A DNA stretch of 32,000 nt from assembly GCA_000091165.1 (NCBI GenBank), contig FP565575.1:1470001-1502000 (forward strand), in the 5' to 3' direction. This DNA comes from Candidatus Methylomirabilis oxygeniifera. GTDB lineage: Bacteria; Methylomirabilota; Methylomirabilia; Methylomirabilales; Methylomirabilaceae. Under the pieces are notes generated by a model. The model saw nothing but the letters and a program-made list of their open reading frames with translations, ran no database searches and was not told the DNA's origin. This document shows positions 715-31,708 of this stretch, piece by piece. Position numbers and translations under genes: made by a program. Each line of letters starts with the position of its first letter. The first letter of the stretch is position 1.

Positions 715-1461
715 CTAATTCACATTATAAGAGCTGAGCATCTGCAGCGCCCTTAACGCGTTGTGGCAGTCGCGGGCGATGCCGGTCTCCGGCTCGTCCG
801 TCGCCCGCAGTCGCGCTGTGGCGACTAACTGATTCTGGGTGCACTGCACCTGTTCAATCTTTGCCGTAAGCTGCTCGATAGAACGCCTGAGTTCCTCGTA
901 CAGGCAGGCGTCCGCCGCAACCATTCCCACGGCTGCTCCGATCGTGATCAGGAGGCGTAGATCTGCCTCTGTGAACGAGCGCGCCCGACACGCGGCGATA
1001 TCGAGGGAACCGATGACCTCCCCTTTGGCCCGCAGCGGGACGGCCACGAAGGTCTTGAAGCCGGCCGTGACCACGCTGCGCCGGAGAAAGCGAGGCTCTT
1101 CCGCCAGATCGGTAATGACCACGGGCTCCCCGGTCTCCACCACCAGCCCGGGAATCCCTTCACCGACGGCAAACCGCGTGCGTTCCAGGAAGGCCTCCTC
1201 GATAAGGCCGTAATGCCGCTCGACGCACACCTCTCCTCGGATCCTATCGAGCAGACAGATCTCCCCGGCCTCCATCTCCAGAATCGTCACGGTCACGTCG
1301 AGGATCCGCTCGAGAATTTGATGGATCGGCAGCGAACCGGTGATGATCTGGCCGACAATGCGAAGAGCCTCCAGGTGTCTGGTGTGGTAGAGGTGCTGTC
1401 TTACCATGGTCTCTACGTCAGCATACAACTTAGTCCCCTTCACCGTCGCCCCCTCCTCCAT
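715..1461 (-). CDS. GAF-domain protein ending in a HisKA_3-like H-box helix, with no kinase ATPase domain
   Basis: The ORF 715..1494 opens with GTG. An ATG at 1461 (or GTG at 1464) follows a GGAAGGAGG SD and is the likelier start. GAF-like core: ...LEMEAGEICLLD...FVAVPLRAKGEVIGSLDIA.... After a coiled coil the C-terminus reads GIARDCHNALRALQML, resembling the IARELHD..aQ.L phospho-acceptor helix; the protein stops 10 aa later. Confidence 0.7.
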   Translation of the reverse strand: MEEGATVKGTKLYADVETMVRQHLYHTRHLEALRIVGQIITGSLPIHQILERILDVTVTILEMEAGEICLLDRIRGEVCVERHYGLIEEAFLERTRFAVGEGIPGLVVETGEPVVITDLAEEPRFLRRSVVTAGFKTFVAVPLRAKGEVIGSLDIAACRARSFTEADLRLLITIGAAVGMVAADACLYEELRRSIEQLTAKIEQVQCTQNQLVATARLRATDEPETGIARDCHNALRALQMLSSYNVN

Positions 1462-1490
1462 CACGGCCCGCCTCCTTCCGGGGTATCCAT

Positions 1491-2261
1491 TCACGGCATC
1501 TCCCCGGCCTGCACAATGATCTGCGCAACCGCCGCCAGCCTGAGGTTGCGCGCCTGGCTCTCCCGCTGCAGTTTTCGCATCGCCTCGGCCTCAGATAGTC
1601 GCAGCCGCTCCATAAGGATCCCTTTCGCCTTCTCGACCAGCTTTCGCTCCTCGAGCGCCGTCTCCAGCTCCCGCGTCCGCTGTTCCAAATACCGGACCTT
1701 CGCCTGGAGCTGGCGCACCGTCGCCTCGGAGAAGCGCTCCGGTTGGCCGCCGGGCTCGGGGGCGGGGCCGCCCTGCGCCGGCCGGTCGACGGCGACGGCC
1801 CCCGTCTCGGCCTCCGCGGTGGGCTGCAGGTACAGCCGGACGTCGCAGCCCTCGCGCGCCGCCGTGTCCCGCGGCGCGACTACCACCTTGCCGTAGCCGA
1901 AGCGCTCCGCGGCTATCCGCCGGAGGCTCTCCCACCACAGGTGGCAGAGGGGCGCCGTCTGTCCGCCCTCGTCGCGGCATATCGTACAGGTGAAGCGGAT
2001 ATGATCGGGCGCCACCCGGTACTGCATCGCGCCGCCCAGTTGCTGCGCCAGTCGGACGACGGCCTTGGCGTAGGTGTCCGGGGTGAGGGGTGACGGCGCG
2101 TCCTCGCACGGCGCCTCCGCCATACGCAGGAGGCGGGCGGCGGCGCGCAGGGCCTGCTGCCGTCCCTGCGAGTTGCCCCACTCGTCCAGCAGGCCCGCCG
2201 TGTGCCCGATGAAGTCGCGCAGGAGCGGGACGCGCTTCCCAAGGATCTGCTCATTCACCAT
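1491..2261 (-). CDS. ANTAR-domain RNA-binding antiterminator with an uncharacterised Cys-containing N-terminal domain
   Basis: The C-terminal LEERKLVEKAKGILMERLRLSEAEAMRKLQRESQARNLRLAAVAQIIVQ matches the ANTAR signature (eRk.IeqAKGiLm...s..eAf..Lr..S...n.kl..vA..iv). It is preceded by a coiled coil. The N-terminal ~150 aa carry FTCTICRDEGGQTAPLCH. The stop overlaps the GTG at 1494 of the next ORF. Confidence 0.8.
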   Translation of the reverse strand: MVNEQILGKRVPLLRDFIGHTAGLLDEWGNSQGRQQALRAAARLLRMAEAPCEDAPSPLTPDTYAKAVVRLAQQLGGAMQYRVAPDHIRFTCTICRDEGGQTAPLCHLWWESLRRIAAERFGYGKVVVAPRDTAAREGCDVRLYLQPTAEAETGAVAVDRPAQGGPAPEPGGQPERFSEATVRQLQAKVRYLEQRTRELETALEERKLVEKAKGILMERLRLSEAEAMRKLQRESQARNLRLAAVAQIIVQAGEMP

Positions 2262-2886: not shown

Positions 2887-4593
2887 ATGCAGCGGTTTAA
2901 GAATCTCAAGACCATGACCAAATTGTTGCTGGCGTTCGCGATCGTCAGCGTCATCGCAGGCGCGCTGGGCTACTTAGGCATCCGCAACATGGGCATCATG
3001 AACGCCGGCACCGAAAATATCTATCAGGTGCAACTCCTGCCCAGCCTTGAGTTGGCCAGAATGCGCGGCCTCTCGCTCCAGATCCGAGCCCGGGTATGGC
3101 AAGCCATCGCCGCCCCCACCCTCACTGAGGCCATGGATTCGATCGATCGAATCCATGACCTGCAGAAGGAACTCGACGAGGCGCGTGAACAGTTTGTCCC
3201 AACCATCCGGAGCCAGGAGGTACGGGAGACCTTTGAAACCTATGTGAAGGCCGACAAGGAATACGAGACCGTCAGAGAAGAGGGAACCATCAAGGCCATC
3301 CTGGCCGGTAACCGCGAAGCCACCATGACGGCGGCCAAGGTCGCCGGTGAGAAGCTCCAGGTCTCTAACCAGGCCCTCAACCACGTCATCGAGGTCAAAA
3401 AGGGCATCGCGACGAAAAAGTTTGAGGAGGCGCAGTCGGTGTACGCCTCAAGCCGGGTCACGATGATCGGCTTCGTCGTCGGCGGTCTACTGATCGGTCT
3501 GGCGCTGGGATACTTCATCGCGAACCTGATCGCTCAAGCGCTGAAGCGGATCATGGCGGCCACGGAGCTGGCTGCCTCCGGCGATCTCACGGTGCGGATT
3601 GCGGTAGACACCAAGGACGAACTCGGCCTGATGGGGGCGGCATTCAACCGGATGCTGGAGAGTTTCCACGACAGCATGCGGGAGGTGCAACAGGCCTCCA
3701 ACCATACCGCCGCCGCCTCCCAACAGCTCGCCGCCGGCAGCGAGGAGCTCTCCAGCGGCGCCCAGGAGCAGGCTGCCTCCCTGGAAGAGACGGCCGCCTC
3801 TCTGGAACAGATGACCTCGACCGTCAAGCAGAACGCCGACAACGCCCGCCAGGCCAACCAGATGGCGGTCAGCACACGGAACGAGGCCGAGCAGGGCGGA
3901 AGTGTGGTCCAGGCTGCCGTGGCCTCCATGGAGGCGATCAGCGCCTCCTCCAAGCAGATTGCCGCCATCATCACCACCATCGACGAAATCGCCTTCCAGA
4001 CCAACCTGCTGGCGCTGAATGCCGCCGTCGAAGCCGCCCGCGCCGGGGAGCAGGGCCGGGGCTTTGCCGTGGTGGCCAGCGAGGTCCGGGCGCTTGCCCA
4101 GCGATCCGCCGCCGCCTCCAAGGAGATCAAGGCGCTGATCACCGACTCCGTCGCGAAGGTCGAAGACGGGGCCAGGCTGGTCCATCAGTCCGGCGACACC
4201 CTGACCGAGATCATGGCCTCTATCAAGAAGGTGGCCGACCTTGTCGCCGAGATCTCGGCCGCCTCGCAGGAGCAGGCGCAGGGGATCGAGCAGGTCAACA
4301 AGGCCGTCACCCAGATGGATAGTGTCACCCAAAGCAACGCCGCCCAGACCGAGCAACTCAGCTCAACCGCGCAGTCGCTGGCAGCGCAGGCCGAGGAGCT
4401 GTCGGCCCAGGTGGCGAAGTTTAAGTTAGCATATGGGGCAGCGGTCGGCTCTCAGCCGTCCGCCGTCAGCCAGGAACCGAGGAGTAAGGTCGTGCCCTTC
4501 AAAGGCAAGGCGAGGAGCAAGAGCGACGCGCCCAAGGTTGTGGCAGCCGCCACCGGGACCGATGCCGCGTACGGCACGTTTGAGGAGTTCTAG
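2887..4593 (+). CDS. Methyl-accepting chemotaxis protein, four-helix-bundle (4HB_MCP-like) sensor + HAMP + signalling domain
   Basis: GAGAGGAGAGG SD before the ATG. N-terminal TM segment ([20 protein letters not shown]), a ~160-aa helical periplasmic region, a second TM and a HAMP domain. Canonical hairpin tip [42 protein letters not shown]-terminal sequence TFEEF. Confidence 0.9.
3574..4593 (+). repeat. Copy 1 of the duplicated MCP HAMP/signalling module (~1.02 kb)
   Basis: Colinear with 5788..6807 and of equal length (339 codons). By eye ~90% identity at both protein and nucleotide level, with long identical runs. Confidence 0.85.
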
Positions 4594-4713: not shown

Positions 4714-6807
4714 ATGCGGCTACAGTGGTTTAAAAATCGTAACATTAAAACGAAGTTAATACTTGGCTTCGGCTTAGCGGGTCTGGCACTGGTAGCAACA
4801 CCATTGGCTGCGTACGTCATGCAGAGCAGCGGGGAAATTCGAACGGCACGTCTGGAGCTGACCGGGCTCGCGCCGTCCAAAGTGCTACTCAGGGTCGTTC
4901 AGTTGACGCAACAGCACCGCGGGCTCTCATCCAATGTGCTAGGCGGAAACACGGCGATGGAGGCGCAACGGGCTGCCAAGCAGGTCGAGGTAGACAAAGC
5001 GGTCGAGACATTCGACGCAATCGTGAAGTCCGAGATCCATGATTCCGCACTCGCGGGCGCCTGGAGCACAACGGTCGAGCGCTGGAGGGCGTTAGCGAGC
5101 AGCGTTTCGTCGCACGCGATCATCGGCAAAGAGAGTGTGGCCAAGCACACGGCGCTGATCGCCGACAACCTGAAGGTACTCGATCTGACATTGGATTATT
5201 TTGGTCTGTCGCTCGACCCGAGTGCGGATAGCTATCATCTGGTTATGGGAGTATTAGTCTATATGCCGGACCTCACCGAACTGCTCGGACAGGCGCGAGC
5301 GCGCGGTTCGCTCTATCTGGCGACCAAAAGTTTGACCGCTGAGGACCGCGTCGAGCTTGCCGCGATCATCGATACGGCGGACAGACAACACGAACAGGTG
5401 GTACGTGAAATCGATAAGGCGATGGCTCTGAACCCTCAGGTGAAGGCCGCGCTGGCCGGCCTCGTACAAAACGGTGCCGGGCTTGTACAAAAGGCAATGG
5501 ATCTCACCAGGACTCATGTAGTAGAGGCTAAGATCCTCAGCTATCCATCGACCGATTACTTTACGGTGTTTACCCAGGTGATTGACGATCAGTTCAAGCT
5601 GCTTTCTGCAGCGACGGAGGAGCTGGATGCGGCTCTCCAGACGCGCATCGCCGAGCTACGGAGCGGACAGGTCAAGATGCTCGGCATCATCGCGTTGGCG
5701 ATTGCGTTGGCGGTGTGGATGGGGACGGTGATTAGCCGTTCAATCAGCGGCCCGGTGCGCGAGGTGATGGGTGCGACAGAAAAGGCAGCGAGTGGCGACT
5801 TGACCGTTCGTGTCAGCCTCGACAGCAAGGACGAGCTCGGCCTGATGGGCGCGGCCTTGAACCGGATGTTGGATAGCTTCCACGACAGCATGCGGGAGGT
5901 GCAGCAGGCCGCCAACCATACTGCCGCTGCCTCCCAGCAGCTCGCCACCGGGTCCGAGCAACTGAGCAGCGGCGCCCAGGAGCAGGCATCTTCCCTGGAA
6001 GAGACGGCGGCCTCCCTGGAGCAGATGACCTCGACCGTCAAGCAGAACGCCGACAACGGCCGCCAGGCCAATCAGATGGCGGTCAGCGCCCGGGATGGGG
6101 CCGAGCAGGGCGGCGCGGTGGTCCGGGAGGCCGTGGCCTCGATGGAGGCGATTACCCAGTCTTCCAAGCAGATCAGTGCGATTATTACTACTATCGACGA
6201 GATCGCCTTCCAGACCAACCTGCTGGCGCTGAATGCCGCCGTCGAAGCGGCCCGCGCCGGCGAGCAGGGAAGAGGATTTGCCGTCGTGGCCAGCGAGGTT
6301 CGGGCGCTCGCGCAACGCTCGGCGGCGGCCTCCAAGGAGATCAAAGCCCTGATCACCGACTCGGTGGCCAAGGTGGAGGAGGGAGCCGCGCTGGTGAATC
6401 AGTCCGGCAACACCCTAACCGAGATCGTGGCCTCCGTTAAGAAGGTCGCCGACCTGATCGCCGAGATCTCGGCTGCCTCGCAGGAGCAGGCGCAGGGGAT
6501 CGAGCAGGTCAACAAGGCCGTCACCCAGATGGATTCGGTCACTCAGAGCAACGCCGCCCAGACCGAGCAACTCAGCTCAACCGCGCAGTCGCTGGCGGCG
6601 CAGGCGGAGGAACTATCGGCCCAGGTGGCCAAATTCAAGCTGGCAGAGGCAGCCGTCAGCGGTCAGCCGTCAGCGGTCAGCCGTACAACCTCCGCCAAGG
6701 TCATTCCACTGAAAGGCAAGGCCAGGGGCAAGGGTGAAGGGCCCCAGCCAGCGGTCGTGGCGGCCACCGGAACCGATGCGACGTACGGCACGTTTGAGGA
6801 GTTTTAG
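4714..6807 (+). CDS. Methyl-accepting chemotaxis protein with NIT-like (nitrate/nitrite-sensing type) periplasmic domain + HAMP + signalling domain
   Basis: N-terminal TM, then [44 protein letters not shown], which resembles the NIT-domain signature (..LQ.ERG.s...l.s.g......). A ~280-aa helical sensor, a second TM and a HAMP domain follow. The signalling domain is near-identical to MCP1, and the C-terminus is TFEEF. Confidence 0.85.
5788..6807 (+). repeat. Copy 2 of the duplicated MCP HAMP/signalling module
   Basis: See 3574..4593. Similarity continues into the 3' flank (CTTCAGCCTAAAC vs CTTCAGTCTAAAC). Confidence 0.85.
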
Positions 6808-7371: not shown

Positions 7372-8037
7372 TCACACCGTTCCGATCCGCGTCTTGACTT
7401 GACATTTCGTAATGAACTGTCTCAGCTTTCTTTCATCCGCTCGCTGTAGAGCCATCATACGGAGTGCGATCCTGCTCTGGTTCTGTCCGAGATGCCTGAA
7501 AGACTCACTCCGGACGACCCTCGCGGCAGCATGAATGGGCGACTCGCCGCGGGAGAGCGTCATCGAGAGCTCGACGGCATCCTCCGCCTCGAGGCGCCCA
7601 CTGAATACGATGAGAAGTCCGCCACAACTGATGTTCACTGCTGTGGCTCGTTCTCGCTTCACCGGCGTCCGCTCGCCTTTCGGTAGAATCAATTCTACGT
7701 CGAACAGGCACGGCTGCCTCACGTCTTCTCTTCTCTGAACTCGGCGTACCTCTCCAGGGGGCGACAGATGCAGCAGGAGGCCGGACGAGTGGAGCAGCGT
7801 GGAGCGAAAACGATAGAGGGCATCGTCGGCTGTCGCTGATACCTGCACGTCTCTCGCCGAGTTCCGAGACGTTGTCGACACGCCCCCGTCTTTGTCATGA
7901 GTCAGCGACACGACGAGTGTCTGCGAATCGATGCGCACGATGGTCCCGATCATTGAAACGGGAGGATCGGCGAACTCAACCTGCACCTTGAGGCCGTTAC
8001 AGATCTTGCTCTCCACTTCGATCTCCCAACTCCGCAC
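7372..8037 (-). CDS. PilZ-domain c-di-GMP receptor, YcgR/MotI-like (PilZN + PilZ)
   Basis: RxxxR motif (QRREDVRQ) and D/NxSxxG motif (NISCGG) at the correct spacing, with an N-terminal beta-rich ~100 aa as in YcgR-type proteins. The ORF-track start (8037) is a GTG without an SD. The GTG at 8016, preceded by GGGAG, is more likely. Confidence 0.75.
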   Translation of the reverse strand: MRSWEIEVESKICNGLKVQVEFADPPVSMIGTIVRIDSQTLVVSLTHDKDGGVSTTSRNSARDVQVSATADDALYRFRSTLLHSSGLLLHLSPPGEVRRVQRREDVRQPCLFDVELILPKGERTPVKRERATAVNISCGGLLIVFSGRLEAEDAVELSMTLSRGESPIHAAARVVRSESFRHLGQNQSRIALRMMALQRADERKLRQFITKCQVKTRIGTV

Positions 8038-8878
8038 TTCTTAGGTCCGGATCGATAGGGTGGCCGTCTTTTCGAACCTCAAAGTGCAAGTGTGTCCCCG
8101 TCGCCTTTCCTGTGGCGCCAACGATTGCAATGGGCATCTCCCGGTCCACAACAACCCCAGCCGGAATCAGGTTGGACGCGTTGTGGCCATACGAGGTCGT
8201 AAACCCGTCTGCGTGCGCCAGCACGATCAGATTGCCGTAGCCGAGGGTGCGACCACTGAAGATGACCCGGCCAGGCGCCGCCGGATAGATGAGCGATCCG
8301 GTCGGCATCCTGATGTCTACGCCGGCATGAAAGGCTCTCAACCCTGTCACCGGATCGGTTCGAGGGCCGAACGAGGAGGTGAATCGGCCCGCAAACGAAC
8401 GCATGAAGGCCTTCAGGCCATGCGGAATGCCGACAGTAGACTCGCTTACTCCCGCAACCGTGTCATCGTGGCGGAACCCGACATTCTGTTCGCTCGGCTT
8501 CGCGCCGGGGATGACGGCGGACAGATCGATGGCCTGGCCGGGACGGATGCGATCCGGATCCGCAAGCCGATTGGCCTTCGCGACGATGCCGACGGCGCGG
8601 TAGAGGGTATCGGCACCTGCCGATTTGCCGGTTTCCCGCAGCGTCGCCTGAACCAGGTGGGATAGCGTATCGCCTGTGCGGACTATGCGGATGGCCTGCG
8701 CGTTATTCTCCGCAGCAATACCGGGCGCATTCGCAGTCGTGCGCAACTGATGGCTCACCTCTGTCAGAAGACGCGGAAACGTCGGCGTACTCGATTCCTC
8801 CTTCGCCTGATCCGGCGTCCCACGATGGCCGGTCGCACTCGCCACCCCCGCGTGGCGCTCAGCCCACTTGACGTCCAT
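7997..8878 (-). CDS. LysM + M23 (LytM-type) peptidoglycan endopeptidase with no recognisable signal peptide
   Basis: LysM-like segment VRTGDTLSHLVQ...ANRLADPDRIRPGQAIDL. M23 motifs HAGVDI ... GATGKATGTHLHFEV. The N-terminus MDVKWAERHAGVASATGHRGTPDQAKEE is hydrophilic. Confidence 0.8.
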   Translation of the reverse strand: MDVKWAERHAGVASATGHRGTPDQAKEESSTPTFPRLLTEVSHQLRTTANAPGIAAENNAQAIRIVRTGDTLSHLVQATLRETGKSAGADTLYRAVGIVAKANRLADPDRIRPGQAIDLSAVIPGAKPSEQNVGFRHDDTVAGVSESTVGIPHGLKAFMRSFAGRFTSSFGPRTDPVTGLRAFHAGVDIRMPTGSLIYPAAPGRVIFSGRTLGYGNLIVLAHADGFTTSYGHNASNLIPAGVVVDREMPIAIVGATGKATGTHLHFEVRKDGHPIDPDLRSAELGDRSGEQDL

Positions 8879-9434
8879 CCCCGTGTCCCTCGATCGGTCG
8901 GCCGTTACTCTTGCCGTTTCCGCCGATCACCTCATCCGCCGACTCCTCTGCTCCGATCGACGACATCTCTGGGAGGTGAAGCGTCGACGCTTTGACCTTC
9001 CGGAGATTCATGAGCAGCGCCACCTCCCCCATAGTCATCCCGGTCGCCCGAGCCGCTTCGGCTGGTGTCAGCCCGAGGTCAAGAAGCTGAAGGGCCGCCC
9101 CGCCCGCCTCAGGCAGCCTTGGCAGCGCCTGATTTCGGTCGACCGTTCGCAGTACCTGCGCCGCCAGCACTGAAAACTCCCGAACAAGTTCTCGAAGCTC
9201 CGCCTGGGCCGCCGCCACGTCGCTTACGCGTTGCGCCACCTCTTCGGATGGCTCGACGTCGTTTCCCGACGGCTGTGGTGTCGTCCCTTGGGGCCGTCTT
9301 CTCAACAGGACAAACACCAGACAAAGGCTCACCAACGACACGATCAGCGCAGCGATCATGGCACCCTCTTGTACTCCGAGATCGACAAAAAAGGTATCCA
9401 CGTCCTTGACGATTGACGCACTCCAATCGCTCAT
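8859..9434 (-). CDS. Single-pass membrane protein with C-terminal HTH-like motif (DUF2802-like flagellar-cluster protein)
   Basis: Strong SD (AGGAGGAAGGAG) before the ATG. TM segment AMIAALIVSLVSLCLVFVLL, a coiled segment, then LLDLGLTPAEAARATGMTMGEVALLMNL. As I recall, DUF2802 proteins of proteobacterial flagellar/che clusters look like this. Confidence 0.45.
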   Translation of the reverse strand: MSDWSASIVKDVDTFFVDLGVQEGAMIAALIVSLVSLCLVFVLLRRRPQGTTPQPSGNDVEPSEEVAQRVSDVAAAQAELRELVREFSVLAAQVLRTVDRNQALPRLPEAGGAALQLLDLGLTPAEAARATGMTMGEVALLMNLRKVKASTLHLPEMSSIGAEESADEVIGGNGKSNGRPIEGHGDGRQVG

Positions 9435-9521
9435 CTCCTTCCTCCTCTGATCACGATCACTCTTCAGATTGCGATATCGATGAGCCGACCTCCGGACCGA
9501 CTGCTGGTCGTCCCCGCCGCA

Positions 9522-10901
9522 TCATCGAAAACTCTCCACCAGCCTCCGTACCGCCATACGGGTGGCGTGCTCAAATGACCATCCGACCGTCCCGGCGCTC
9601 CCCGGCGCGATCTTCCCGGCCCACAGCAGCGCTCCGGACGGCAGGGCGATGAGCCTCGCCTCTACCCCGACTCTCGTCACCCTGACCGTTCCCTCCCAAT
9701 GCTGATCCACGCCATATAGATTGACCATCATGACCCGCCGTACCCCAAGCGCTTCCCAATTGACCCCGCCCATATCGAGTGTTGAGTGCTGAGCGTTGAG
9801 TGCTGAGTCGCCGCGTGAAAGCCGTTGGTCGGCGAGCCAATCCCAGCCGCGCGATCGAGCCTCCTCCCGTACCCAATCGGGTCCCCGCGCGTCGATCCCG
9901 GCGTGCGACAGCTCAAGGACAAAGAGCCTGGCCACCTCCTCGACCAACGGTCGATCCTCAACGGACACGCGCGCCGGCAGGACTGCGGTCCGACCCTCCC
10001 TGGAGATGACAACCGGCTGGAGTGCGGGCGGAGCAGCCGGCGATGCGCATCCTCCGACCAACACACCCACGCTCAGGAGAACGGCCAACACCAGCTCGCG
10101 AAGGGTGAAGGTTGCGCTCTCTTCTGCGATGAGGTCGTCCCGGTGGAGCTTGATCTGAAGAAGTCTGGCCCGCATTCGAAGAATGGCCGAGGTATGGATC
10201 TGTGAGACGCGTGATTCCGAGACCTCCAGCACCCGGCCGATCTCTTTCATGGTCAGTTCCTCAAAGTAGTATAAGGTGAGCACCAGCCGCTCTTGAGCCG
10301 GCAACGCCTCGATAATTCCGCCGAGGAGTCGGACCCGCTCCCTACGGGCCGCTTCAGTAGACGGATCTCGACCAGCCCGGTCCGGCAGCTCCCATATAAG
10401 CCGGTCGCTCTCCGTACCGTCGGCCTCAACGCCGGGCTCATCGAGCGACACCAACACCATCCCCCTGATCTCGCCAAGCGTGCGCCAGTAGGTCTCCCGA
10501 TCCATGCCGAGCGCCGCAGCAACCTCGTCATCGCTGGGCTCCCGTCCGAGGTCGACCTCCAGCCGCACCAGCGTCTGCTGGATCTCCCGCGCCTTCGCTC
10601 GGAGTGAACGTGGCGCAAAATCCTGCGCTCTGAGATCATCCAGAATAGCGCCGCGGATCCGGTATTGGGCATAGGTCGCGAACTCCGACGGCTGATCCGG
10701 GTCATAGTGCTCGACGGCGCTCACCAGACCCACCGCACCGGCACTCTCCAGATCGTCCAACTCGACACACGACGGCAGTTGCAACGAGAGCCGCCCGGCG
10801 ACCTGGCGCACAAGGGAGATGTTCGCCGTAATCAACCGATCTCTCAGCCCGGGGTCCTTCGTCTGTCGGTAGGCTTTCCAGTCTTCCCGCGTGATCTCCA
10901 T
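9522..10901 (-). CDS. fliA: Flagellar sigma-28 (FliA/WhiG family) fused in frame to a TM/lipobox segment and a ~175-aa extracytoplasmic domain
   Basis: Residues 1-250 show sigma-70 regions 2-4 (DLESAGAVGLVSAVEHYDP..FATYAQYRIRGAILD ; LPAQERLVLTLYYFEELTMKEIGRVLEVSESRVSQIHTSAILRMRARL). Residues 269-285 are LVLAVLLSVGVLVGGC. Residues 286-459 are a globular-looking domain. The frame has no stop and no plausible internal start. Confidence 0.8.
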   Translation of the reverse strand: MEITREDWKAYRQTKDPGLRDRLITANISLVRQVAGRLSLQLPSCVELDDLESAGAVGLVSAVEHYDPDQPSEFATYAQYRIRGAILDDLRAQDFAPRSLRAKAREIQQTLVRLEVDLGREPSDDEVAAALGMDRETYWRTLGEIRGMVLVSLDEPGVEADGTESDRLIWELPDRAGRDPSTEAARRERVRLLGGIIEALPAQERLVLTLYYFEELTMKEIGRVLEVSESRVSQIHTSAILRMRARLLQIKLHRDDLIAEESATFTLRELVLAVLLSVGVLVGGCASPAAPPALQPVVISREGRTAVLPARVSVEDRPLVEEVARLFVLELSHAGIDARGPDWVREEARSRGWDWLADQRLSRGDSALNAQHSTLDMGGVNWEALGVRRVMMVNLYGVDQHWEGTVRVTRVGVEARLIALPSGALLWAGKIAPGSAGTVGWSFEHATRMAVRRLVESFR

Positions 10902-10959: not shown

Positions 10960-11820
10960 TTACAGTTGCGACGTCCAGTACATTATTCGATCCCAGAAGG
11001 GCTCCGATTGCGGGGCCCGACCGCTCGACGTCGTGAGCGTCTTTGCCAGATCGACAAGCGAGCGCGAGGCTTTCGCGTATGGGAAGCAGACCGAGAACGG
11101 CTTCTGCTCGCAGACTGCGCGTCCAACGCACTCATCCCGAAGCACATGGCCCACAAACCCGACCTCCACCTTCAGGAAGTGCCGGATCACCCGCTGCAAC
11201 TGTTCGAACAGCTCTTCGGCTTGAGAGGCCCCTTCCACCATGTTGATCAGGATCCCCGCACGCGGATCGGCGCGATGGCGCGACAGAACCTTGATCACCG
11301 CGTAGGCATCGGTGATGGCGGTGGGCTCCGGGACGGTGACGACGATCGCCTCGTCGGCCGCCAGGATCAGACTGAGGACGTTGGGCGAGATTCCGGCCGC
11401 GGTATCCAGCAGCAGGATATCGACCAATCCCTCCAGTTGTCCCAGCCGCCCAAGCAGCCTGGCCTGGTCCGCAGGCGCGAGGTTGGCCATCGCTTCGACC
11501 CCTCGGCTCGCCGGGATGACGTACAGGCCATTGGGCCCTCGGAGCATGATGTCGTGAAGCTCCTTCTGTCCTTCGACGACATGACGAAGCGTAAACTTCG
11601 GCGCCAGCCCCAACAGCACATCGACGTTCGCAAGACCCATATCGCCGTCGAGGAGGGCTACGCGGTGGCCTTCCCCGGCCAGTAACAGGCCGAGATTCAC
11701 GGCCAACGACGTCTTGCCGACGCCTCCCTTCCCGCTGGTGATCGCAATCGTCCGGAGCCCTCGTTCGGTCGCGATCGCGCTGCCGCGGAGCTTCGATGCC
11801 TGATCCTGCATCTGTCTCAT
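10960..11820 (-). CDS. flhG: Flagellar number/placement ATPase FlhG (MinD/ParA family; FleN/YlxH)
   Basis: Deviant Walker A SGKGGVGKTS. Position directly after flhF with an ATGA overlap. C-terminal amphipathic tail. Confidence 0.85.
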   Translation of the reverse strand: MRQMQDQASKLRGSAIATERGLRTIAITSGKGGVGKTSLAVNLGLLLAGEGHRVALLDGDMGLANVDVLLGLAPKFTLRHVVEGQKELHDIMLRGPNGLYVIPASRGVEAMANLAPADQARLLGRLGQLEGLVDILLLDTAAGISPNVLSLILAADEAIVVTVPEPTAITDAYAVIKVLSRHRADPRAGILINMVEGASQAEELFEQLQRVIRHFLKVEVGFVGHVLRDECVGRAVCEQKPFSVCFPYAKASRSLVDLAKTLTTSSGRAPQSEPFWDRIMYWTSQL

Positions 11821-12983
11821 CTCTCCTTCCCGCCCTCTGACTCACCGACCAGACGCCACGCCAGCCGTAACGGCTGCGCCTCTTCGATGTCGTCCGGAAC
11901 TTCCTGACCCGTTGTCAGATATGAAATGGGAACAGCAGCCGTCAGTGCGGCCTCGCACACCGGCCCCACGGTAGCGGTTTCATCGAGTTTGGTGGCGATA
12001 ATGGAACTGAAGCCCAGCGGCCTGTACGCCTCGACGGCCTGCAACAGGTCAGCCCGCTTGGTCGTTGCGCTCAACACCAGGTGCACCTCGTATCCGTCGT
12101 CGCTGCCGGCATAGGTCGCCAACTCCTCCAATTGATCCTTCCGCCTCGCACTCCGTCCGACCGTATCAATGAAGATCACATCGGCGTCCCGATCGCCCGC
12201 AAGCGCCCGCTTCAGGTCCGCCGGAAGCGGCGCCACACAATAGGGCAGTCCGATCAGTTCGGCGTAGTTCTTCAGTTGCTGGGCGCCGGCGATCCGATAC
12301 GTGTCGGTAGTAATCAGCGCAACTCTTTTTCCCTCGCGGAAACGACACCCGGCCGCCAGCTTTGCGATGGTCGTCGTCTTGCCGACGCCCGTCGGCCCGA
12401 CCAGCGCCACGACCCGTCGCCCATTTCCGGCCTTGGGAACGGGCAGCCCGACGATCTCACGAGCCAACACCTCGGCGAGCAACGCCGATACCGGCGTCGA
12501 ATCGGGTGATGCCGCCTCTCGAAGTCTGTCCCGCACGGAGACCACCCACCGACGGGCTACGCCCTCTTCCACCTCCTGGGAGAGCAGCGCCCAGTAGATC
12601 CGGCCGAGCGACTGGGGCAGATCGGGCGGCAGGTGCCCTCGCCCGTACAGACCGGACACCATCCCTTTGACCTGCTCAAGCTCCCGTTGCAACGCTCCCA
12701 GATCGATTGAGGAATCGGGCAAATTCCCCCCAGACATTCGCGCCTCGGATCTCTGAAGTCCCCCCATCCCCCCTTTAACAAAGGGGGGCGAGGGGGGATT
12801 TTGGGCCGGCGGATCACCGTCCAGCGCTGCCACGACCTCCACACCCTGCCGCTTCGCAAACGGCATGGCACCGGCAAGCGGAATACTCTTGGTGTGCAGA
12901 ATCACGGCCTCAGGACCTAACTCTTCCCCGATCTGCCGCAACGCGTCATCCATGGTCGCCGCGCGGAATCGCTTAAGATGCAT
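11817..12983 (-). CDS. flhF: Flagellar SRP-type GTPase FlhF
   Basis: G-motifs LVGPTGVGKTTTIAKLAA, DTVGR, TKLDE. Located after flhA. Confidence 0.9.
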   Translation of the reverse strand: MHLKRFRAATMDDALRQIGEELGPEAVILHTKSIPLAGAMPFAKRQGVEVVAALDGDPPAQNPPSPPFVKGGMGGLQRSEARMSGGNLPDSSIDLGALQRELEQVKGMVSGLYGRGHLPPDLPQSLGRIYWALLSQEVEEGVARRWVVSVRDRLREAASPDSTPVSALLAEVLAREIVGLPVPKAGNGRRVVALVGPTGVGKTTTIAKLAAGCRFREGKRVALITTDTYRIAGAQQLKNYAELIGLPYCVAPLPADLKRALAGDRDADVIFIDTVGRSARRKDQLEELATYAGSDDGYEVHLVLSATTKRADLLQAVEAYRPLGFSSIIATKLDETATVGPVCEAALTAAVPISYLTTGQEVPDDIEEAQPLRLAWRLVGESEGGKER

Positions 12984-21955: not shown

Positions 21956-23113
21956 TCAGCAGACAACTCCCATTTGAGCGCCCTCGAGCACGCGGTCCAT
22001 CGATCCCACCCCTTTGGGCGTCGAGATCGCCGTTCTGCCGGATCCACGGTGAAGACTCCTGTAAAGATCCAACCACTGTCGGACATTGGTCTTCAGATGA
22101 AATCTCTCTCGTACTGTCGCATAGGCGTTGCGCGCCAATCGCTCCCGCTCCGCTCTGTCCTCTACCAGCCTCGTCAACTGTCTCAGCCACTCCTGATGGC
22201 GATTCTTTTTCACCAGGATGCCGTTCTCTCCGTCAGTGATCGTGCGAGTATACGGATAGACGGGAGAGGCCACAGTCGGTACCTTGAACATACTGTACTC
22301 GAGATATTTCAGATTGCTCTTCGCCTCATTGAAACGGTTATCACGCAGCGGCGTCAGGCCGATGTCCAGCCGGAGGGCCGCCATGGCATGGTAGTAGCTG
22401 TTGGTCGGCACGAACGGATGAACCTCGAGCCTGTCCGCGGGCACCTCTCGTCGAATCCGCTCCGGTACCCAGCCGAAGAAGACCAACTGTACGTCGGGAC
22501 GCTTCGCCATCGTGATGAGGGCGTCGACCGCGCAGTCGAGATCGCCCTCGTGAAAATTCGATCCGGACCAGCCGATCCTCACCATCGCATTGCGACAGGT
22601 TTGCCGCCCCAAGCGGCTTCCGACAATCGTATCGGCGAGATCGGGATCGACCGCGTTGGGCAGTACGACGACATGGTCATGCACGGCGTCAACCACCCGC
22701 TTGAGCGGCTCCGTCGACACCGTGACGACGTCGGCCACCCGGATGAATCGGGTCAGCCTCGAGAGCCCACCAGCCTGATAGTACCGATAGACCGGATTCT
22801 TGACCGGAAGATGCCAGAAGTCATCGTCGAGCTCATAGACGATCTTCTTACCCATCGCCTTCTGCTCATGTATGAACTCCAGCATACTATCAGAGAGCTG
22901 TCGCTGACAGACCAGAATATCGGCGCCCCTCGCAAACGTCCTCACCTCGTCGGTTAAGGAAGTACCGGCTCTCGTATCAATTCCGTAGAGGTTGCGCAGG
23001 TAGATCCCAGGCAGCAGACACCGGTACCACCCACACCCCGTCTGATCGGCCAGCAGGTAGAGGACTCTGAGACTCCCTGGCGGAATTTCTTTTTTAACTG
23101 AGATCAGCGGCAT
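21956..23113 (-). CDS. GT-B fold glycosyltransferase (family 1/4-like) embedded in the hook operon
   Basis: 385 aa. The C-terminal half, DIGLTPLRDNRFNEAKSNLKYLEYSMFKVPTVASPVYPYTRTITDGENGILV...ARNAYATVRERF, resembles the nucleotide-sugar-binding half of GT1/GT4 enzymes. The family call is from memory only. Confidence 0.6.
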   Translation of the reverse strand: MPLISVKKEIPPGSLRVLYLLADQTGCGWYRCLLPGIYLRNLYGIDTRAGTSLTDEVRTFARGADILVCQRQLSDSMLEFIHEQKAMGKKIVYELDDDFWHLPVKNPVYRYYQAGGLSRLTRFIRVADVVTVSTEPLKRVVDAVHDHVVVLPNAVDPDLADTIVGSRLGRQTCRNAMVRIGWSGSNFHEGDLDCAVDALITMAKRPDVQLVFFGWVPERIRREVPADRLEVHPFVPTNSYYHAMAALRLDIGLTPLRDNRFNEAKSNLKYLEYSMFKVPTVASPVYPYTRTITDGENGILVKKNRHQEWLRQLTRLVEDRAERERLARNAYATVRERFHLKTNVRQWLDLYRSLHRGSGRTAISTPKGVGSMDRVLEGAQMGVVC

Positions 23114-24475: not shown

Positions 24476-25180
24476 TTACCCCTGTGATGCGAGCGACACC
24501 TGGGAGATGGCGCCCAAGGAGACCATGCTTCCGTCCACGATCAGGAACGGCTGTGTCCCCTCGAAGTGAATGCCTGTCACCTGTCCGGATGCGGTATTCG
24601 CGCCGATAACCTCCCCGCCGGCGGCATTCGTGGCCACCACCTTATACAAGTAGCGTCCTGCAGGTATCGGCCGTCCATCGTCGCCAAGCCCGTCGAAGGT
24701 AAGCTGGTATGCTCCAGCCTCCTGTGTCCCCAACGGAACCGTCCGGAGCGGATTCCCCTGAAGGTCCTGGATTTGGAGCTGAACCGACGCGGCGTCGCTC
24801 GGCAGGCTATAACGCAGCGTAGTCGAGCCAACCCCAGCCTGTTCAAAGATGGTGCCGTTCGCCGTTACGACCTTTCCGATGTAGCTTGAGGCCAGGACCG
24901 CATCAAGCGAATTGCTTCCGCTGGTGGCGGCAGAGGAGGCCGAGAGCTGGGCGATCGAGGCATTGATCTGCTGAAGCTGCTCCAGTGAGGTGAATTGAGC
25001 AGTCTGCGCGATGAAGTCAGTACCCTGCAGCGGATTCAACGGATTTTGATTGCGTAACTGGGCGACCAGCAGCTTCAGGAAGGCATCCTTCCCAAGGCCT
25101 CTATCGAGTGCAGAACTGGTCGCAGCGCCCGCACCCTGCGGGCTTTGCACGGTGGTGGTGCTCCCGTTTGTGATCTCCAT
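24476..25180 (-). CDS. flgD: Hook capping/assembly protein FlgD
   Basis: FlgD N-domain KDAFLKLLVAQLRNQNPLNPLQGTDFIAQTAQFTSLEQLQQIN plus a C-terminal Ig-like/tudor region. Strong AAGGAGGG SD. Confidence 0.9.
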   Translation of the reverse strand: MEITNGSTTTVQSPQGAGAATSSALDRGLGKDAFLKLLVAQLRNQNPLNPLQGTDFIAQTAQFTSLEQLQQINASIAQLSASSAATSGSNSLDAVLASSYIGKVVTANGTIFEQAGVGSTTLRYSLPSDAASVQLQIQDLQGNPLRTVPLGTQEAGAYQLTFDGLGDDGRPIPAGRYLYKVVATNAAGGEVIGANTASGQVTGIHFEGTQPFLIVDGSMVSLGAISQVSLASQG

Positions 25181-25237
25181 CGATCATCCCTCCTTTCTTA
25201 AGCGTTCAGCTATCAGCAGTCAGCTATCAGCTAAAGG

Positions 25238-26023
25238 CTACCGCTGATCGCTGCTGACCTCAAAAATGCCCGTAAGCGGCACCAGCGCGCTTCCAACGTG
25301 AAGAAACGGCTGCCCGTTCTCGAACTGTACCCCCATCACTCGCCCAAATGCAGTACTGACGCGAGCCATCGGTTGACCTGCCGCATCGGTGGCGATGACC
25401 CTATACGTGTAAAGGCCGGACTGAAGCCCTCGCCCATCGAACATCATCTGATGGAATCCTCCCGGCTGCGGCCCGAGTTGGACGGTCCCGACTATCGTCC
25501 CCTGGAGGTCCCGCACCTCAATCCGGACCGATTCGGCAGCGGTGGGGAGGCGATACAGAAGAGTCGGTGGGACTGACCCGCGCAGTTCGATGGCCGAGCC
25601 GTTCGCCGCTATCTTCCGACCGATCAGATCCTGGGCCGCGCGGCTACGCGCGGCTGAAGGCTGAAGGCTGAAGGCTGAAGGCTCAACTGCAATCGGCCTC
25701 CGAGAGACTGCGGGTAGAGCTGTCGCCGGGGCAGACGTCCGTCCGGTCGCAAGCTGGGCCGTCAGCAGACCAACAGAGGTATCATCGGCAGAGCCGCTGA
25801 TGACGGTTGGCGCCGAGCCCTGGGATGAGGGAGAACCGACACGTCTCACGTCCGATCGAGTCGATCTCATAGACTGGCTCCGCTCCAGGATTGTATCGAA
25901 TGATCTTTCGGTGCGATCGGCCGCCGTACTGCTATCGAGACCTCGCTCAATAAGAGCGGTGACGGTCTTCCCTGCCAGTGCACCCAGCAGCCTGATCCCG
26001 ACGGCGGCAAGCACAGGTATCAT
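25238..26023 (-). CDS. FlgD Ig-like-domain paralog without the FlgD N-domain (hydrophobic N-terminus, S/T/A-rich linker)
   Basis: The C-terminal TLLYRLPTAAESVRIEVRDLQGTIVGTVQLGPQPGGFHQMMFDGRGLQSGLYTYRVIATDAAGQPM...GVQFENGQPFLHVGSALVPL parallels FlgD 24476..25180 (TLRYSLPSDAASVQLQIQDLQGNPLRTVPLG...YQLTFDG...GRYLYKVVATNAAG...GIHFEGTQPFLIVDGSMVSL). Confidence 0.7.
   Translation of the reverse strand: MIPVLAAVGIRLLGALAGKTVTALIERGLDSSTAADRTERSFDTILERSQSMRSTRSDVRRVGSPSSQGSAPTVISGSADDTSVGLLTAQLATGRTSAPATALPAVSRRPIAVEPSAFSLQPSAARSRAAQDLIGRKIAANGSAIELRGSVPPTLLYRLPTAAESVRIEVRDLQGTIVGTVQLGPQPGGFHQMMFDGRGLQSGLYTYRVIATDAAGQPMARVSTAFGRVMGVQFENGQPFLHVGSALVPLTGIFEVSSDQR
25652..25684. repeat. Heptanucleotide tandem repeat (GGCTGAA) x4.7 inside the FlgD-Ig paralog CDS
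   Basis: GGCTGAAGGCTGAAGGCTGAAGGCTGAAGGCTC read directly. It encodes EPSAFSLQPSA on the minus strand. Confidence 0.95.
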
Positions 26024-28345: not shown

Positions 28346-29106
28346 GGTGTCGCCTCGCCGGCCTTTCCCTGACTGATCGTCCGGCCTGCTCCCGCATCTT
28401 CAAGCCGTTCACTCAGTTCTTTCGCCTTCTGTCCAGTCATCGCGGCCAGCACTTTCGAGGCCTGTCGATCCTTCATCGCAGCGAGTACCTCCGTCGCCAT
28501 CTCCCGCTTCAGCTTGCTCAGAATCGACGCCGCAGCCTCCGGCTCCATTCCCTCGTAGAGTGTCGCCAGCCTCTTTACTCCGGCTTCTCGCCTGGCATCT
28601 CGCTCTTTCGTGAGCTTCGCGCCGGTCGCCTTTAACTCGGCGAGCCATTTCTCCTCGATCTGGTTCTCCTCCTTCCGCTTGCGGATCTGCTCCTCCAGCC
28701 GGAGCAGCTCCGCTCGTTTCTCCGCGAGTGCCTTCTCCTGATCGCTGATCACCGGTCGCTGTTCGTTTGACAGCGGTGGCGGCGTCCCTGTCGCGGCAGC
28801 AGTCTGCTGAGGTGGATGTGATGCGCTCGCATCGGACTTCTGCGGCGCCGGCTGTGCCGAAGGCGTCTCCTCCCGCGGCTGCAAGGAGGCCTGATCTTTG
28901 GGCGCCGATCCCGTGTCGTGAGCCTGGTCTGACTCCTGCACGGTCGACGGCTGATCGCTGATTGCCGACTGCTCATCCTGTTGAGGGGCAGCGGCTTGAC
29001 GGCCAAATCGCGGGAGAATTCCCTGCTGCAGGACGCCCGTCAGGTAGGAGGCAAGCAGCAGCATCGCGACGAAATATCCGGCATACAGCGCGATTCGACT
29101 CTTCAC
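28342..29106 (-). CDS. YlxF/MotE-like flagellar protein (MgtE_N-like C-terminus, COG3334-type)
   Basis: GTG start overlapping the fliJ stop. N-terminal TM, a P/Q/S-rich linker, a coiled coil, then LATLYEGMEPEAAASILSKLKREMATEVLAAMKDRQASKVLAAMTGQKAKELSERL. Same position as B. subtilis ylxF (between fliJ and fliK). Confidence 0.7.
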   Translation of the reverse strand: MKSRIALYAGYFVAMLLLASYLTGVLQQGILPRFGRQAAAPQQDEQSAISDQPSTVQESDQAHDTGSAPKDQASLQPREETPSAQPAPQKSDASASHPPQQTAAATGTPPPLSNEQRPVISDQEKALAEKRAELLRLEEQIRKRKEENQIEEKWLAELKATGAKLTKERDARREAGVKRLATLYEGMEPEAAASILSKLKREMATEVLAAMKDRQASKVLAAMTGQKAKELSERLEDAGAGRTISQGKAGEATP

Positions 29107-31022: not shown

Positions 31023-31708
31023 GAGATCTCATCCCTTCCGAGCAGGCGAGCGGCCTCATGAAGTTGGCTCTCCACGCGCGCATCCACAAGACCGGACTCA
31101 ACCTCCACCACGCAGCCCCAGGAGGAGATCGCGGGATCGGGGATGATCCGGGCCGACTCCGGCGAGCCGAGCAGTTCTCCCCGATGCTCCATCAACAGTT
31201 CGTAATCGCCGGGATTGACCCGAATAGCCATAATCTTTCGGCTCCCGGCGACTTCCAGGGCGGCCCTGACAAACTGTACGGCCGCATCTCGGCGGGCCCC
31301 GAGTTCGGATCGGAGCACTCGCTCCGCAACGGCAACCGCCAGGCGGACCAACTCCTCCTCCGCATTCGTGATAACGGCTTGGCGAGCGGACGCAACCTGT
31401 CGACAGGTCTCCTGCAGCAACGTCTCCAACGGCTCGCACCGACGCCGCATCTCGTCCATCGCGTCCTGTCGGCCCCTGGCGCGACCCTCCCGTTCGGCCT
31501 CGCGCTCGATCTGTTGCGCCGCCTCACGAGCCGAGAGTATGATCGCCTCAGCCTCGCGCTCGGCCGCTCGGATCGACTCATACCCCGACTGTGCAGACTC
31601 GTGCTCTGTCGCCCACGCCCCGCCGGCCGATCGGCCCGCGCTATATACCAACTCTTCAAAGGAGACTCGCTCCCATCCACCAACTCCGGCCGTCACAATC
31701 TTAGACAA
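31019..31708 (-). CDS. fliH: Flagellar export protein FliH (start re-assigned)
   Basis: E/R/A-rich coiled region and a C-terminal FliH domain (IRVNPGDYELL...GCVVEVESGLVDARVESQL). TTG at 31708 follows GGAGGAGATCA and overlaps the fliG stop; GTG at 31696 is an alternative. The ORF-track N-terminal 51 aa are Arg-rich and overlap fliG. Confidence 0.8.
   Translation of the reverse strand: MSKIVTAGVGGWERVSFEELVYSAGRSAGGAWATEHESAQSGYESIRAAEREAEAIILSAREAAQQIEREAEREGRARGRQDAMDEMRRRCEPLETLLQETCRQVASARQAVITNAEEELVRLAVAVAERVLRSELGARRDAAVQFVRAALEVAGSRKIMAIRVNPGDYELLMEHRGELLGSPESARIIPDPAISSWGCVVEVESGLVDARVESQLHEAARLLGRDEIS

Follow-up and report, generated by a model that had tools for sequence, protein, structure and literature searches.

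A flagellar sigma-28 factor fused in one reading frame to an exported-type lipoprotein in Candidatus Methylomirabilis

In Candidatus Methylomirabilis oxygeniifera, the gene for the flagellar sigma factor FliA (sigma-28) continues in the same reading frame into a lipoprotein-type signal and an exported-type domain. It lies in a 32,000-nucleotide stretch of contig FP565575.1 (assembly GCA_000091165.1, positions 1,470,001 to 1,502,000 of the forward strand), which is called the window throughout and whose coordinates are used below. Comparison of related sequences confirmed that this fusion is genuine and selectively maintained, far beyond what chance would give, and related genomes document an evolutionary series from overlapping genes to fusion and then to secondary fission leaving a relic of sigma region 4.2. 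As to function, the reading preferred here, which taken as a whole is considered somewhat probable, is that the sequence encodes a pro-sigma-28 with an internal lipoprotein signal, whose halves would be separated by the lipoprotein-processing enzymes Lgt and Lsp (signal peptidase II), with a protease then freeing FliA.

Architecture and conservation of the fused gene

The fused open reading frame (ORF) starts with ATG preceded by GAGGA. The original prediction had described it as FliA, a linker, a hydrophobic segment with a lipobox and 174 further residues in one frame, which is accurate by ORF analysis, by Pfam and NCBIfam matches and by hydropathy; its coordinates also stand, with the strand, which had been left unstated, now given as minus. 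The modules are listed below with the evidence that delimits them, including AlphaFold2 (AF2) models, their predicted local distance difference test (pLDDT) and ratios of nonsynonymous to synonymous change (dN/dS), obtained by codon-level comparison of eight intact fused genes.

9522..10901, minus strand: whole fused gene, 459 codons plus the stop at 9522-9524 (ORF list and sequence)
10143..10901, minus strand: sigma-28 (FliA/WhiG) module, residues 1-253, with regions 2, 3 and 4 (TIGR02479, Pfam, AF2; dN/dS 0.17)
10098..10142, minus strand: linker, residues 254-268, RDDLIAEESATFTLR (alignment; disordered in AF2; dN/dS 0.28)
10047..10097, minus strand: internal lipoprotein signal, made of Glu269, the 15-residue hydrophobic region (h-region) LVLAVLLSVGVLVGG and the lipobox Cys285 (alignment; dN/dS 0.17)
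9993..10046, minus strand: Pro/Ala-rich spacer, residues 286-303 (pLDDT below 50; dN/dS 0.52)
9525..9992, minus strand: alpha/beta lipoprotein domain, residues 304-459, 156 residues (AF2, Foldseek; dN/dS 0.17-0.18)

By its profile matches the N-terminal part is a complete FliA/WhiG sigma-28 of group 3. The FliA/WhiG match covers residues 5-251, with TIGR02479 scoring 240.7 bits against a cutoff of 189.6 and NF005413 scoring 225.6 bits against a cutoff of 201 (FliA model coverage of residues 9-249), and the Pfam models of region 2 (PF04542), region 3 (PF04539) and region 4 (PF04545/PF08281) are all above their gathering scores. The best-matching models are those of FliA/WhiG and not those of extracytoplasmic function (ECF) sigma factors, and region 3 is present. 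Region 4.2 terminates in ...ILRMRARLLQ (Q249), its helix ending at about residue 253 in the AF2 model; 20 residues after Q249 the segment LVLAVLLSVGVLVGG-C follows in the same frame (residues 270-285, nt 10047-10094, with the Cys285 codon at 10047-10049), and 174 residues lie C-terminal to Cys285. In the window ORF there is no in-frame stop between the sigma and lipoprotein parts, and the only in-frame ATG near the junction is Met243, which lies inside region 4.2 and has no Shine-Dalgarno (SD) sequence upstream, as had been noted originally. The linker is net acidic, with Asp256 and Arg268 invariant in an alignment of 21 fused sequences, and the Pfam and NCBIfam scans found no domain match in the approximately 15-20 residues that separate region 4.2 from the hydrophobic stretch.

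A search with the full-length protein recovered the same architecture in 21 protein clusters of 429-466 residues with 61-93% identity (19 of 455-466 residues and two N-terminally truncated), drawn from many independent Logan, JGI and NCBI assemblies, and no orthologue-based stop or frameshift was found at the junction. A word-indexed search with the C-terminal 206 residues returned three stand-alone matches and none of these 21 fused proteins, some of which are 93% identical, and hence an empty result of that search is not to be read as absence. At the DNA level eight distinct intact copies were compared, namely the window, L003 (Ca. Methylomirabilis bin48), L083, L099/L100 (GCA_041491025.1), L101, L102, L103 and L104. 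In all 21 aligned sequences a lipobox of the form [VIL][GA]GC (VGGC, IGGC, LAGC) occupies the same position; Gly284 and Cys285 are invariant, in agreement with the earlier assignment of a lipobox at the end of the hydrophobic segment, and so is Ala273 within the h-region.

The dN/dS values place the sigma module, the h-region with its lipobox and the folded C-terminal domain at nearly the same level; the value of 0.28 refers to the FliA tail together with the linker (residues 246-268), that of the post-Cys spacer points to relaxed constraint, and the variable loop of the alpha/beta domain (residues 356-381) reaches 0.64. Since these low ratios go along with synonymous differences near saturation (proportion of synonymous differences, pS, 0.51-0.59 in all regions and 0.55-0.58 near the junction), the junction is translated in this frame and is under purifying selection like both domains. 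The idea that an assembly or sequencing error merged fliA with a downstream lipoprotein gene draws on the ancestral overlap of 4 or 14 nt described below, with which a one-nucleotide error would fuse the genes, and on the related assembly L002 (GCA_027493695.1, JAOSKH010000010.1), which is full of frameshifts. It is nevertheless almost inconceivable and was rejected, because the same in-frame junction recurs in the 21 protein clusters and eight DNA copies from unrelated samples and assemblers, because even in L002, with its frameshifts elsewhere, a single frame runs from region 4.2 through the linker and the hydrophobic stretch to GGC, and because the protein sequence of the linker is conserved amid many synonymous differences. 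Thus, the original view of a genuine fusion rather than a one-nucleotide assembly error is borne out. In L002 at least three frameshifts interrupt the orthologue (5151-6526), their positions being query residues ~147, ~291 and ~430, and no gene call was made for flhA, which suggests an error-prone long-read assembly; the annotated 'hypothetical protein' P0002 of this assembly is a fragment of the fused gene.

The C-terminal domain and the origin of the fusion

An AF2 model of the C-terminal part, built from a mixed alignment, has a mean pLDDT of 80 with the core above 90, and consists of a helix corresponding to the hydrophobic stretch, the disordered Pro/Ala spacer, which resembles the flexible tethers that mature lipoproteins typically have, and a compact alpha/beta domain. 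Foldseek comparison of the model with the PDB gave GNA1162/DUF799 as the top match (4hrv, E 2.7e-7, probability 1.00, TM-score 0.44/0.56), along with PelC (5t0z, 5t10 and 9h80, E 2.5e-6 to 1e-4), CsgG (4uv2, E 1.9e-5), CT253, HpaA and the Vibrio flagellar H-ring protein FlgT (3w1e, E 1e-4), plus a chain of the LPHT-ring entry 8z5n. These proteins are all exported, most are lipoproteins, and several form rings under the outer membrane. At the level of sequence, the window domain scores 11.7-11.8 bits against the gathering score of 25.9 for the Pfam GNA1162-like family (PF05643), weak matches to which occur in seven of 16 family members (best E 0.016), and a sequence-profile search of the PDB with the C-terminal domain gave no significant match. 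A bridge is provided by protein P0199, which is reached by the family profile at E 6.8e-5, matches PF05643 at E 7.9e-10 and passes the Pfam thresholds for both GNA1162-like (PF05643) and CsgG (PF03783). Judged from the predicted structure, the domain is therefore a distant relative of GNA1162, PelC, CsgG and FlgT by fold and not a member of the Pfam family; an earlier guess of DUF799 holds for the fold and fails at the PF05643 threshold. P0199 itself (368 residues) was rejected as a second type of fusion, being a tandem GNA1162-like lipoprotein without a sigma part, and a faint match of the C-terminal part to FliH (E ~0.1) was treated as chance.

An exhaustive search with the family profile through 1.84 billion representatives yielded only 65 members, among them P0004 as the sole sigma fusion, and the fused form is confined to a single cluster at 50% identity. 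The search defines a small, previously unnamed lipoprotein family of about 65 clusters at 50% identity. Its stand-alone members that resemble the C-terminal part are about 205-215 residues long, and at the N-terminus of each is a lipoprotein signal peptide of the classical kind, such as MKARAKALVVLLAMGLAANGC, which can be aligned with the hydrophobic stretch and Cys of the fused protein. Except in the two re-split loci described below (L001 and L004), a family member stands directly after fliA in every stand-alone locus with upstream sequence, which makes the family a candidate flagellar accessory component in Methylomirabilota.

The arrangement of these stand-alone genes in Rokubacteria and other Methylomirabilota points to how the fusion came about. 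At 12 loci of the Rokubacteria type, which are those with enough upstream sequence and include several near-identical copies, fliA lies directly upstream in another frame, with its stop overlapping the start of the lipoprotein gene as ATGA or GTGA. Such a stop-start overlap is the usual arrangement for translational coupling, and the ancestral overlapping genes were probably coupled in this way. The closest unfused relatives of the FliA part, at 55-56% identity, are found in L105 (labelled Ca. Methylomirabilis sp.) and L106, where the same gene pair overlaps by 14 nt and the lipoprotein, of 214-215 residues, shares 41% identity with the window domain over a 61-residue core (E 3e-15). The tails of unfused FliA proteins (KLQPEDLHVED..., ...RRRKLQPEDLHVED...) correspond to the fused linker ...KLQRDDLIxEE..., and the linker can thus be taken as derived from the C-terminal tail of FliA. 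Because the unfused relatives have two overlapping genes, the fusion is a derived merger of such genes in the Methylomirabilis clade, for which a one-base frame change near the overlap would be sufficient and which evidently arose once, on the branch leading to the clade of 61-93% identity.

In two loci the gene has been split again by inserted DNA, which consists of fliG-fliH in L004 and of IscB-like and TnpB-like genes in L001. The re-split lipoprotein of both begins with a relic of region 4.2, MTRLLRMRARLQRDDLRK-LVLAVLVSLGLLVGGC (MTRLLRMRARLQRDDLRK-LVLAV...GGC), the acidic linker is deleted with Arg-Lys in its place, and the same hydrophobic segment and lipobox now stand at the conventional position of an N-terminal signal peptide. 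The regions concerned, L004:6001-9227 (bin48, JANGEZ010000081.1) and L001:3696-4325, look like secondary fission of the fused gene. In L004 the unfused FliA of 281 residues keeps part of the linker (...RDDLIGDERAAW...), its first ~95 residues are nearly identical to those of fused-type proteins such as P0012, and it is followed by fliG, a fliH-like gene, the stand-alone lipoprotein gene with the N-terminus MTRILRMGASLQRDDLRK...GGC and a gene for a methyl-accepting chemotaxis protein (MCP). Because bin48 also holds the intact fused gene (L003), L004 represents either a paralogous locus or sequence from a second strain that was binned with it. In L001, the region just before the re-split lipoprotein gene (L001:509-3579) contains a gene for a 504-residue RRXRR+HNH protein (IscB-like) and one for a 487-residue protein with a weak Cas12f1/TnpB-like TNB domain; elements of the IS200/605 type may have caused the split in L001.

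Processing of the fused protein and rival explanations

Whether the hydrophobic stretch acts as a signal peptide or as an anchor is central to what becomes of the protein. The region of residues 270-285 is the most hydrophobic 19-residue segment of the protein (Kyte-Doolittle 2.19), and the h-region measures 15 residues in all of the 21 fused proteins but P0015, where it has 16; in most stand-alone signal peptides it has 13-15. The Hessa insertion energy of the best 19-mer ranges from -0.7 to +4.4 kcal/mol among the fused proteins and is mostly positive. A lipobox of the general form [LVI][ASTVIG][GAS]C stands at the end of the h-region in all 21 aligned sequences. Because the h-region is only 15-16 residues long, the predicted insertion energy is mostly marginal or positive, the Gly-Cys of the lipobox is invariant and a flexible spacer follows, the stretch appears signal-peptide-like and marginal as a stable transmembrane (TM) anchor. 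That the re-split L001 and L004 proteins use the same stretch N-terminally argues that it retains its signal-peptide character. None of the eight genes has a conserved internal start (codon 243 is GTA in L104) and SD-like sequence is absent upstream, while the in-frame GTG/TTG codons in the h-region of the window gene are not conserved across them. Since there is no conserved internal start codon, the lipoprotein domain can be made only as the C-terminal part of the FliA polypeptide. Internal initiation or a hidden RNA signal as a conserved feature of the junction was accordingly rejected, there being no conserved start, no SD sequence and no suppression of synonymous rates.

In the preferred reading of a pro-sigma-28 with an internal lipoprotein signal, the FliA part would be translated first, fold and stay cytoplasmic, whereupon the internal signal would target the nascent chain to SecYEG and insert with its N-terminus inside and its C-terminus outside, so that the C-terminal domain is exported. 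Lgt would lipidate Cys285 and Lsp would cut between Gly284 and Cys285. One product would be the mature lipoprotein, 175 residues long and folded like GNA1162, PelC, CsgG and FlgT, which would probably serve as a periplasmic flagellum-associated scaffold or ring component. The other would be FliA(1-284), held at the membrane only via the short signal-peptide h-region, and this remnant would either be cleared like other signal peptides (by a site-2 protease, S2P, such as RseP, or by SppA, with Lsp making the 'site-1' cut) or slip out to give active sigma-28. Precedents are known from other systems: Lsp and then S2P turn lipoprotein signal peptides into active enterococcal pheromones (PMC10202637), RseP is described as removing signal peptides in E. 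coli in PMC8144685, and the successive action of Prc and RseP frees IutY, a hybrid of sigma and anti-sigma factor (PMC8999054). The net effect would be an obligatory 1:1 synthesis of sigma-28 and lipoprotein, and sigma-28 would be born as a membrane-bound pro-protein whose activation, regulated or constitutive, depends on envelope export and lipoprotein maturation. More tentatively, and with a good deal of doubt, sigma-28 could be activated by lipoprotein maturation as such, FliA then amounting to an outsized n-region of a lipoprotein signal peptide, with Lsp acting at site 1 and S2P or SppA at site 2, in which case late flagellar transcription would be gated in cis by export and lipidation of a flagellum-associated outer-membrane ring lipoprotein, supplementing or replacing the FlgM checkpoint. 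If the Lsp cut and S2P clearance are true, proteins with large cytoplasmic N-terminal domains would have to be counted among the known substrates of the lipoprotein pathway, release of a sigma factor from the membrane would have an example outside the ECFs, and the protein would offer a natural, portable design for export-gated transcription. If activation by lipoprotein maturation is true as well, a membrane-born sigma factor of group 3 would for the first time be seen to have its pro-domain at the C-terminus, and signal peptidase II would for the first time be seen to release a transcription factor.

The evolutionary and architectural part of this reading is near certain. The processing part, in which lipidation, Lsp cleavage and release are all deduced from sequence, is held with moderate confidence, and several observations weigh against it. 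The signal begins at about residue 268 of 459 rather than at an N-terminus with a short basic n-region, which the stand-alone homologues do have, and the flank before the h-region is net acidic (DDLIAEES...RE) with only Arg268 conserved, contrary to the rule of a positive n-region. Most members have Gly at position -2 of the lipobox, a residue that is allowed there but not common, and the invariant Gly-Cys could be kept for another reason. To our knowledge, no demonstrated substrate of Lgt or Lsp has a large folded cytoplasmic domain ahead of its signal, and the literature searched gave no relevant report of an internal lipobox that follows a cytoplasmic domain. The AF2 model of the whole protein is of poor quality (pLDDT 60, predicted TM-score 0.36), its interdomain contacts being uninformative, and the evidence for a flagellar role of the lipoprotein family consists of synteny and fold resemblance.

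The most serious competitor, itself unlikely, is an uncleaved, stably tethered sigma-28, in which the stretch would serve as a type-II anchor, the exported domain would sense the periplasm (e.g. completion of the outer flagellar structure), and site-1 cleavage followed by S2P would release FliA, replacing or supplementing FlgM export; the tethering itself would keep FliA inactive or acting at the membrane. Such an arrangement agrees with the order of N-in sigma part, hydrophobic helix and exported domain, with the precedents of IutY and ECF48/52/53, with the failure to find flgM in the window, and with the linker, which is conserved, is unlike a free n-region and gives way to Arg-Lys upon re-splitting in L001 and L004. 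However, a stretch of 15-16 residues whose 19-mer insertion energy is mostly marginal or unfavourable makes a poor anchor, a plain anchor does not need the invariant lipobox Gly-Cys, no anti-sigma or zinc-finger domain stands between region 4.2 and the membrane, and the exported domain of every unfused relative is a separate lipoprotein of the ordinary kind that cannot contact FliA. The same evidence counts against the original proposal that the protein is its own anti-sigma device with a periplasmic sensor or plug: the Pfam and NCBIfam scans detected no FlgM or anti-sigma similarity in the extension, the C-terminal part is in all unfused relatives an independent, fully exported lipoprotein encoded after fliA, and only about 15-20 residues lie between region 4.2 and a hydrophobic stretch that is itself marginal as a TM anchor. 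Among the release routes that had been named with that proposal, the analysis favours signal peptidase II.

Two other explanations were considered. A neutral or degenerating fusion, in which the sigma part is inactive or quickly degraded, another copy supplies sigma-28 and the gene is kept for its lipoprotein, is improbable; the metagenome-assembled genome bin48 does have an unfused 281-residue FliA at a second locus (L004), and the fused form is limited to one cluster at 50% identity, but the sigma part matches the NCBIfam and Pfam models over a full FliA with scores that exceed the cutoffs, its dN/dS of 0.17 equals that of the lipoprotein domain across sequences down to 61% identity, it takes the canonical place of fliA behind flhF and flhG where the main flagellar cluster ends, and the L004 copy looks like a rearranged derivative of the fused gene or a second strain in the bin. 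Slightly harder still to credit is the formation of two products from one ORF, by internal initiation at Met243 or a GTG/TTG codon, or by programmed frameshifting or termination yielding a FliA of ~255-275 residues. The probable coupling of the ancestral overlapping genes, the start of the re-split protein P0001 a few codons upstream of the position equivalent to Met243, and the in-frame GTG/TTG codons in the h-region of the window gene speak for it. Against this, codon 243 is GTA in L104 and an SD-like sequence precedes it in none of the eight genes, initiation at the non-conserved GTG/TTG codons would remove the n-region and part of the h-region, the unsuppressed pS near the junction argues against a conserved RNA signal, and FliA would still be without a stop codon.

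Genomic neighbourhood and comparison with known systems

With the fused gene in the place of fliA, the main flagellar cluster ends in the canonical order flhF-flhG-fliA. flhF and flhG end a large cluster that extends to fliH at 31019-31861, and genes for PilZ and MCP proteins lie downstream of the fusion. The features around it are as follows.

11817-12983, minus strand: flhF, SRP54-type domain, upstream of the fusion
10960-11820, minus strand: flhG, ParA/MinD-type domain, immediately upstream of the fusion
9467..9496, minus strand: relic GRLIDIAI* of a gene of ~100 codons, of which the last ~9 codons survive (tblastn and translation)
8859..9434, minus strand: 191-residue single-TM protein with a coiled coil and a helix-turn-helix (HTH)-like C-terminus (PF10975, DUF2802, E 0.01, below cutoff)
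7997..8878, minus strand: M23 (LytM) peptidoglycan peptidase with a faint LysM match (PF01551, E 2.6e-27; MepM/ActS/NlpD-like by NCBIfam; synteny)
7372..8037, minus strand: PilZ-domain protein (PF07238, E 6.7e-12; synteny downstream)

The common context of intact copies is fliR-flhB-flhA-flhF-flhG-fusion-TM protein-M23 peptidase, followed by PilZ where the contig reaches; in L104, flhB-like and fliK-like genes follow M23 in place of PilZ. The gene for the single-TM protein stands after the fusion in every fused locus examined (L099, L101-L104 and the window), a similar TM protein with an HTH-like C-terminus was recognized by eye after the stand-alone pair in Rokubacteria L006 (2111-2530), and the 191-residue protein is a candidate partner of FliA or of the lipoprotein. 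The ~100-residue gene, deleted in the window apart from its relic, is intact after the fusion in L099:7381-7695, L101:7412-7732, L103:3290-3586 and L102:~3237-3551 and absent in L104; its product is highly charged, probably disordered, and ends ...YGRDKT...KGRLIDIAI. It was considered as a possible FlgM and rejected, having no match to FlgM nor any other Pfam or NCBIfam match. No FlgM (PF04316) was found in the window ORFs scanned, the remaining small intergenic ORFs being judged by eye only, which agrees with the original statement that no flgM is visible; since flgM is usually located elsewhere, its absence from 32 kb says little. The strict sigma-28 promoter consensus TAAA-N15-GCCGATAA had no matches in the window, where typical late genes (flagellin etc.) are not located.

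Further observations concern the rest of the window. Two adjacent FlgD-like genes (24476-26023 and 21956-23113, both minus strand) differ in that one product has N-terminal, Ig and Tudor domains and the other Ig and Tudor domains only, and a group-1 glycosyltransferase gene is embedded between flgE and flbD/fliL in the flagellar cluster. A 254-residue protein encoded between fliK and fliJ (28342-29106, minus strand) has MgtE_N/FliG_M-like matches and also weakly matches FlbB, a protein of the flagellar collar of spirochaetes, at 27.7 bits, which is short of the cutoff. Overlapping genes for GAF-domain and ANTAR-domain proteins at the window edge (715-2261, minus strand) are unrelated to the fusion.

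Sigma-28 and FlgM form a textbook morphogenetic checkpoint, through which gene expression is tied to the building of a machine in the envelope. Canonical FliA, ~240-260 residues long, is soluble and inhibited in trans by FlgM, which exits via the flagellar type III export apparatus. The fused protein belongs to the same sigma family, has the same position at the cluster end, and its sigma-28 availability would likewise be coupled to an export event, but the coupling would be in cis via Sec, Lgt and Lsp, and neither the extension nor the window contains an FlgM-like sequence. In the literature searched no membrane-anchored or lipoprotein-fused FliA is reported, as the original prediction had also stated, and nothing relevant was found on Methylomirabilis flagella.

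Among other sigma factors, pro-sigma-K and pro-sigma-E of Bacillus subtilis also belong to group 3 and are synthesized in an inactive form associated with the membrane, from which membrane proteases (SpoIVFB being an S2P) produce the active factors. Their activation by membrane proteases is also described in PMC10202637. In contrast to their short N-terminal pro-peptide without an exported domain, the fused FliA has a C-terminal extension containing a whole lipoprotein. That extension matches the fold of GNA1162/DUF799, PelC, CsgG and FlgT (Foldseek E 2.7e-7 to 1e-4), its stand-alone homologues have lipoprotein signals and, like FlgT, its family is encoded in a flagellar cluster; the family nevertheless remains below the Pfam thresholds, and the known families are never fused to a sigma factor.

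The nearest precedents come from the ECFs, the only sigma factors known to have a C-terminal extension with a membrane segment and an exported part. Among these hybrids, IutY of Pseudomonas putida (ECF243) has been characterized experimentally and ECF48/52/53 (e.g. SCO4117) are predicted (PMC8999054), and the activity of IutY needs proteolytic release by Prc and then RseP (PMC8999054; PMC10202637). The fused protein shares with them an N-terminal cytoplasmic sigma part, one membrane segment after region 4 and an exported C-terminal domain, its own topology being a predicted one. The differences are, however, substantial, since those proteins are group-4 ECF sigmas with regions 2 and 4, carry a FecR-like or ZAS anti-sigma domain before the membrane and have a true TM helix, whereas the fused protein is a group-3 sigma-28 with region 3, has only ~15-20 linker residues followed by a 15-residue signal-peptide h-region with an invariant lipobox, and its exported part is a lipoprotein of the GNA1162/PelC/CsgG fold. 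With the enterococcal pheromones it would have in common an Lsp cut first, an intramembrane protease second and a remnant that is the regulatory product (PMC10202637), the difference being that theirs is an exported peptide of 7-8 residues and here a putative cytoplasmic transcription factor of 284 residues would arise from an internal signal. Only a narrow clade of bacteria, most of them uncultured, has the fusion, and any regulatory meaning of it is putative. Sigma-28 is here coupled to the envelope in a different manner, by a cis fusion to an exported-type lipoprotein via a signal peptide, and the fused FliA brings a cis-acting membrane extension to a sigma group outside the ECFs, with a release chemistry that would be different and possibly new.

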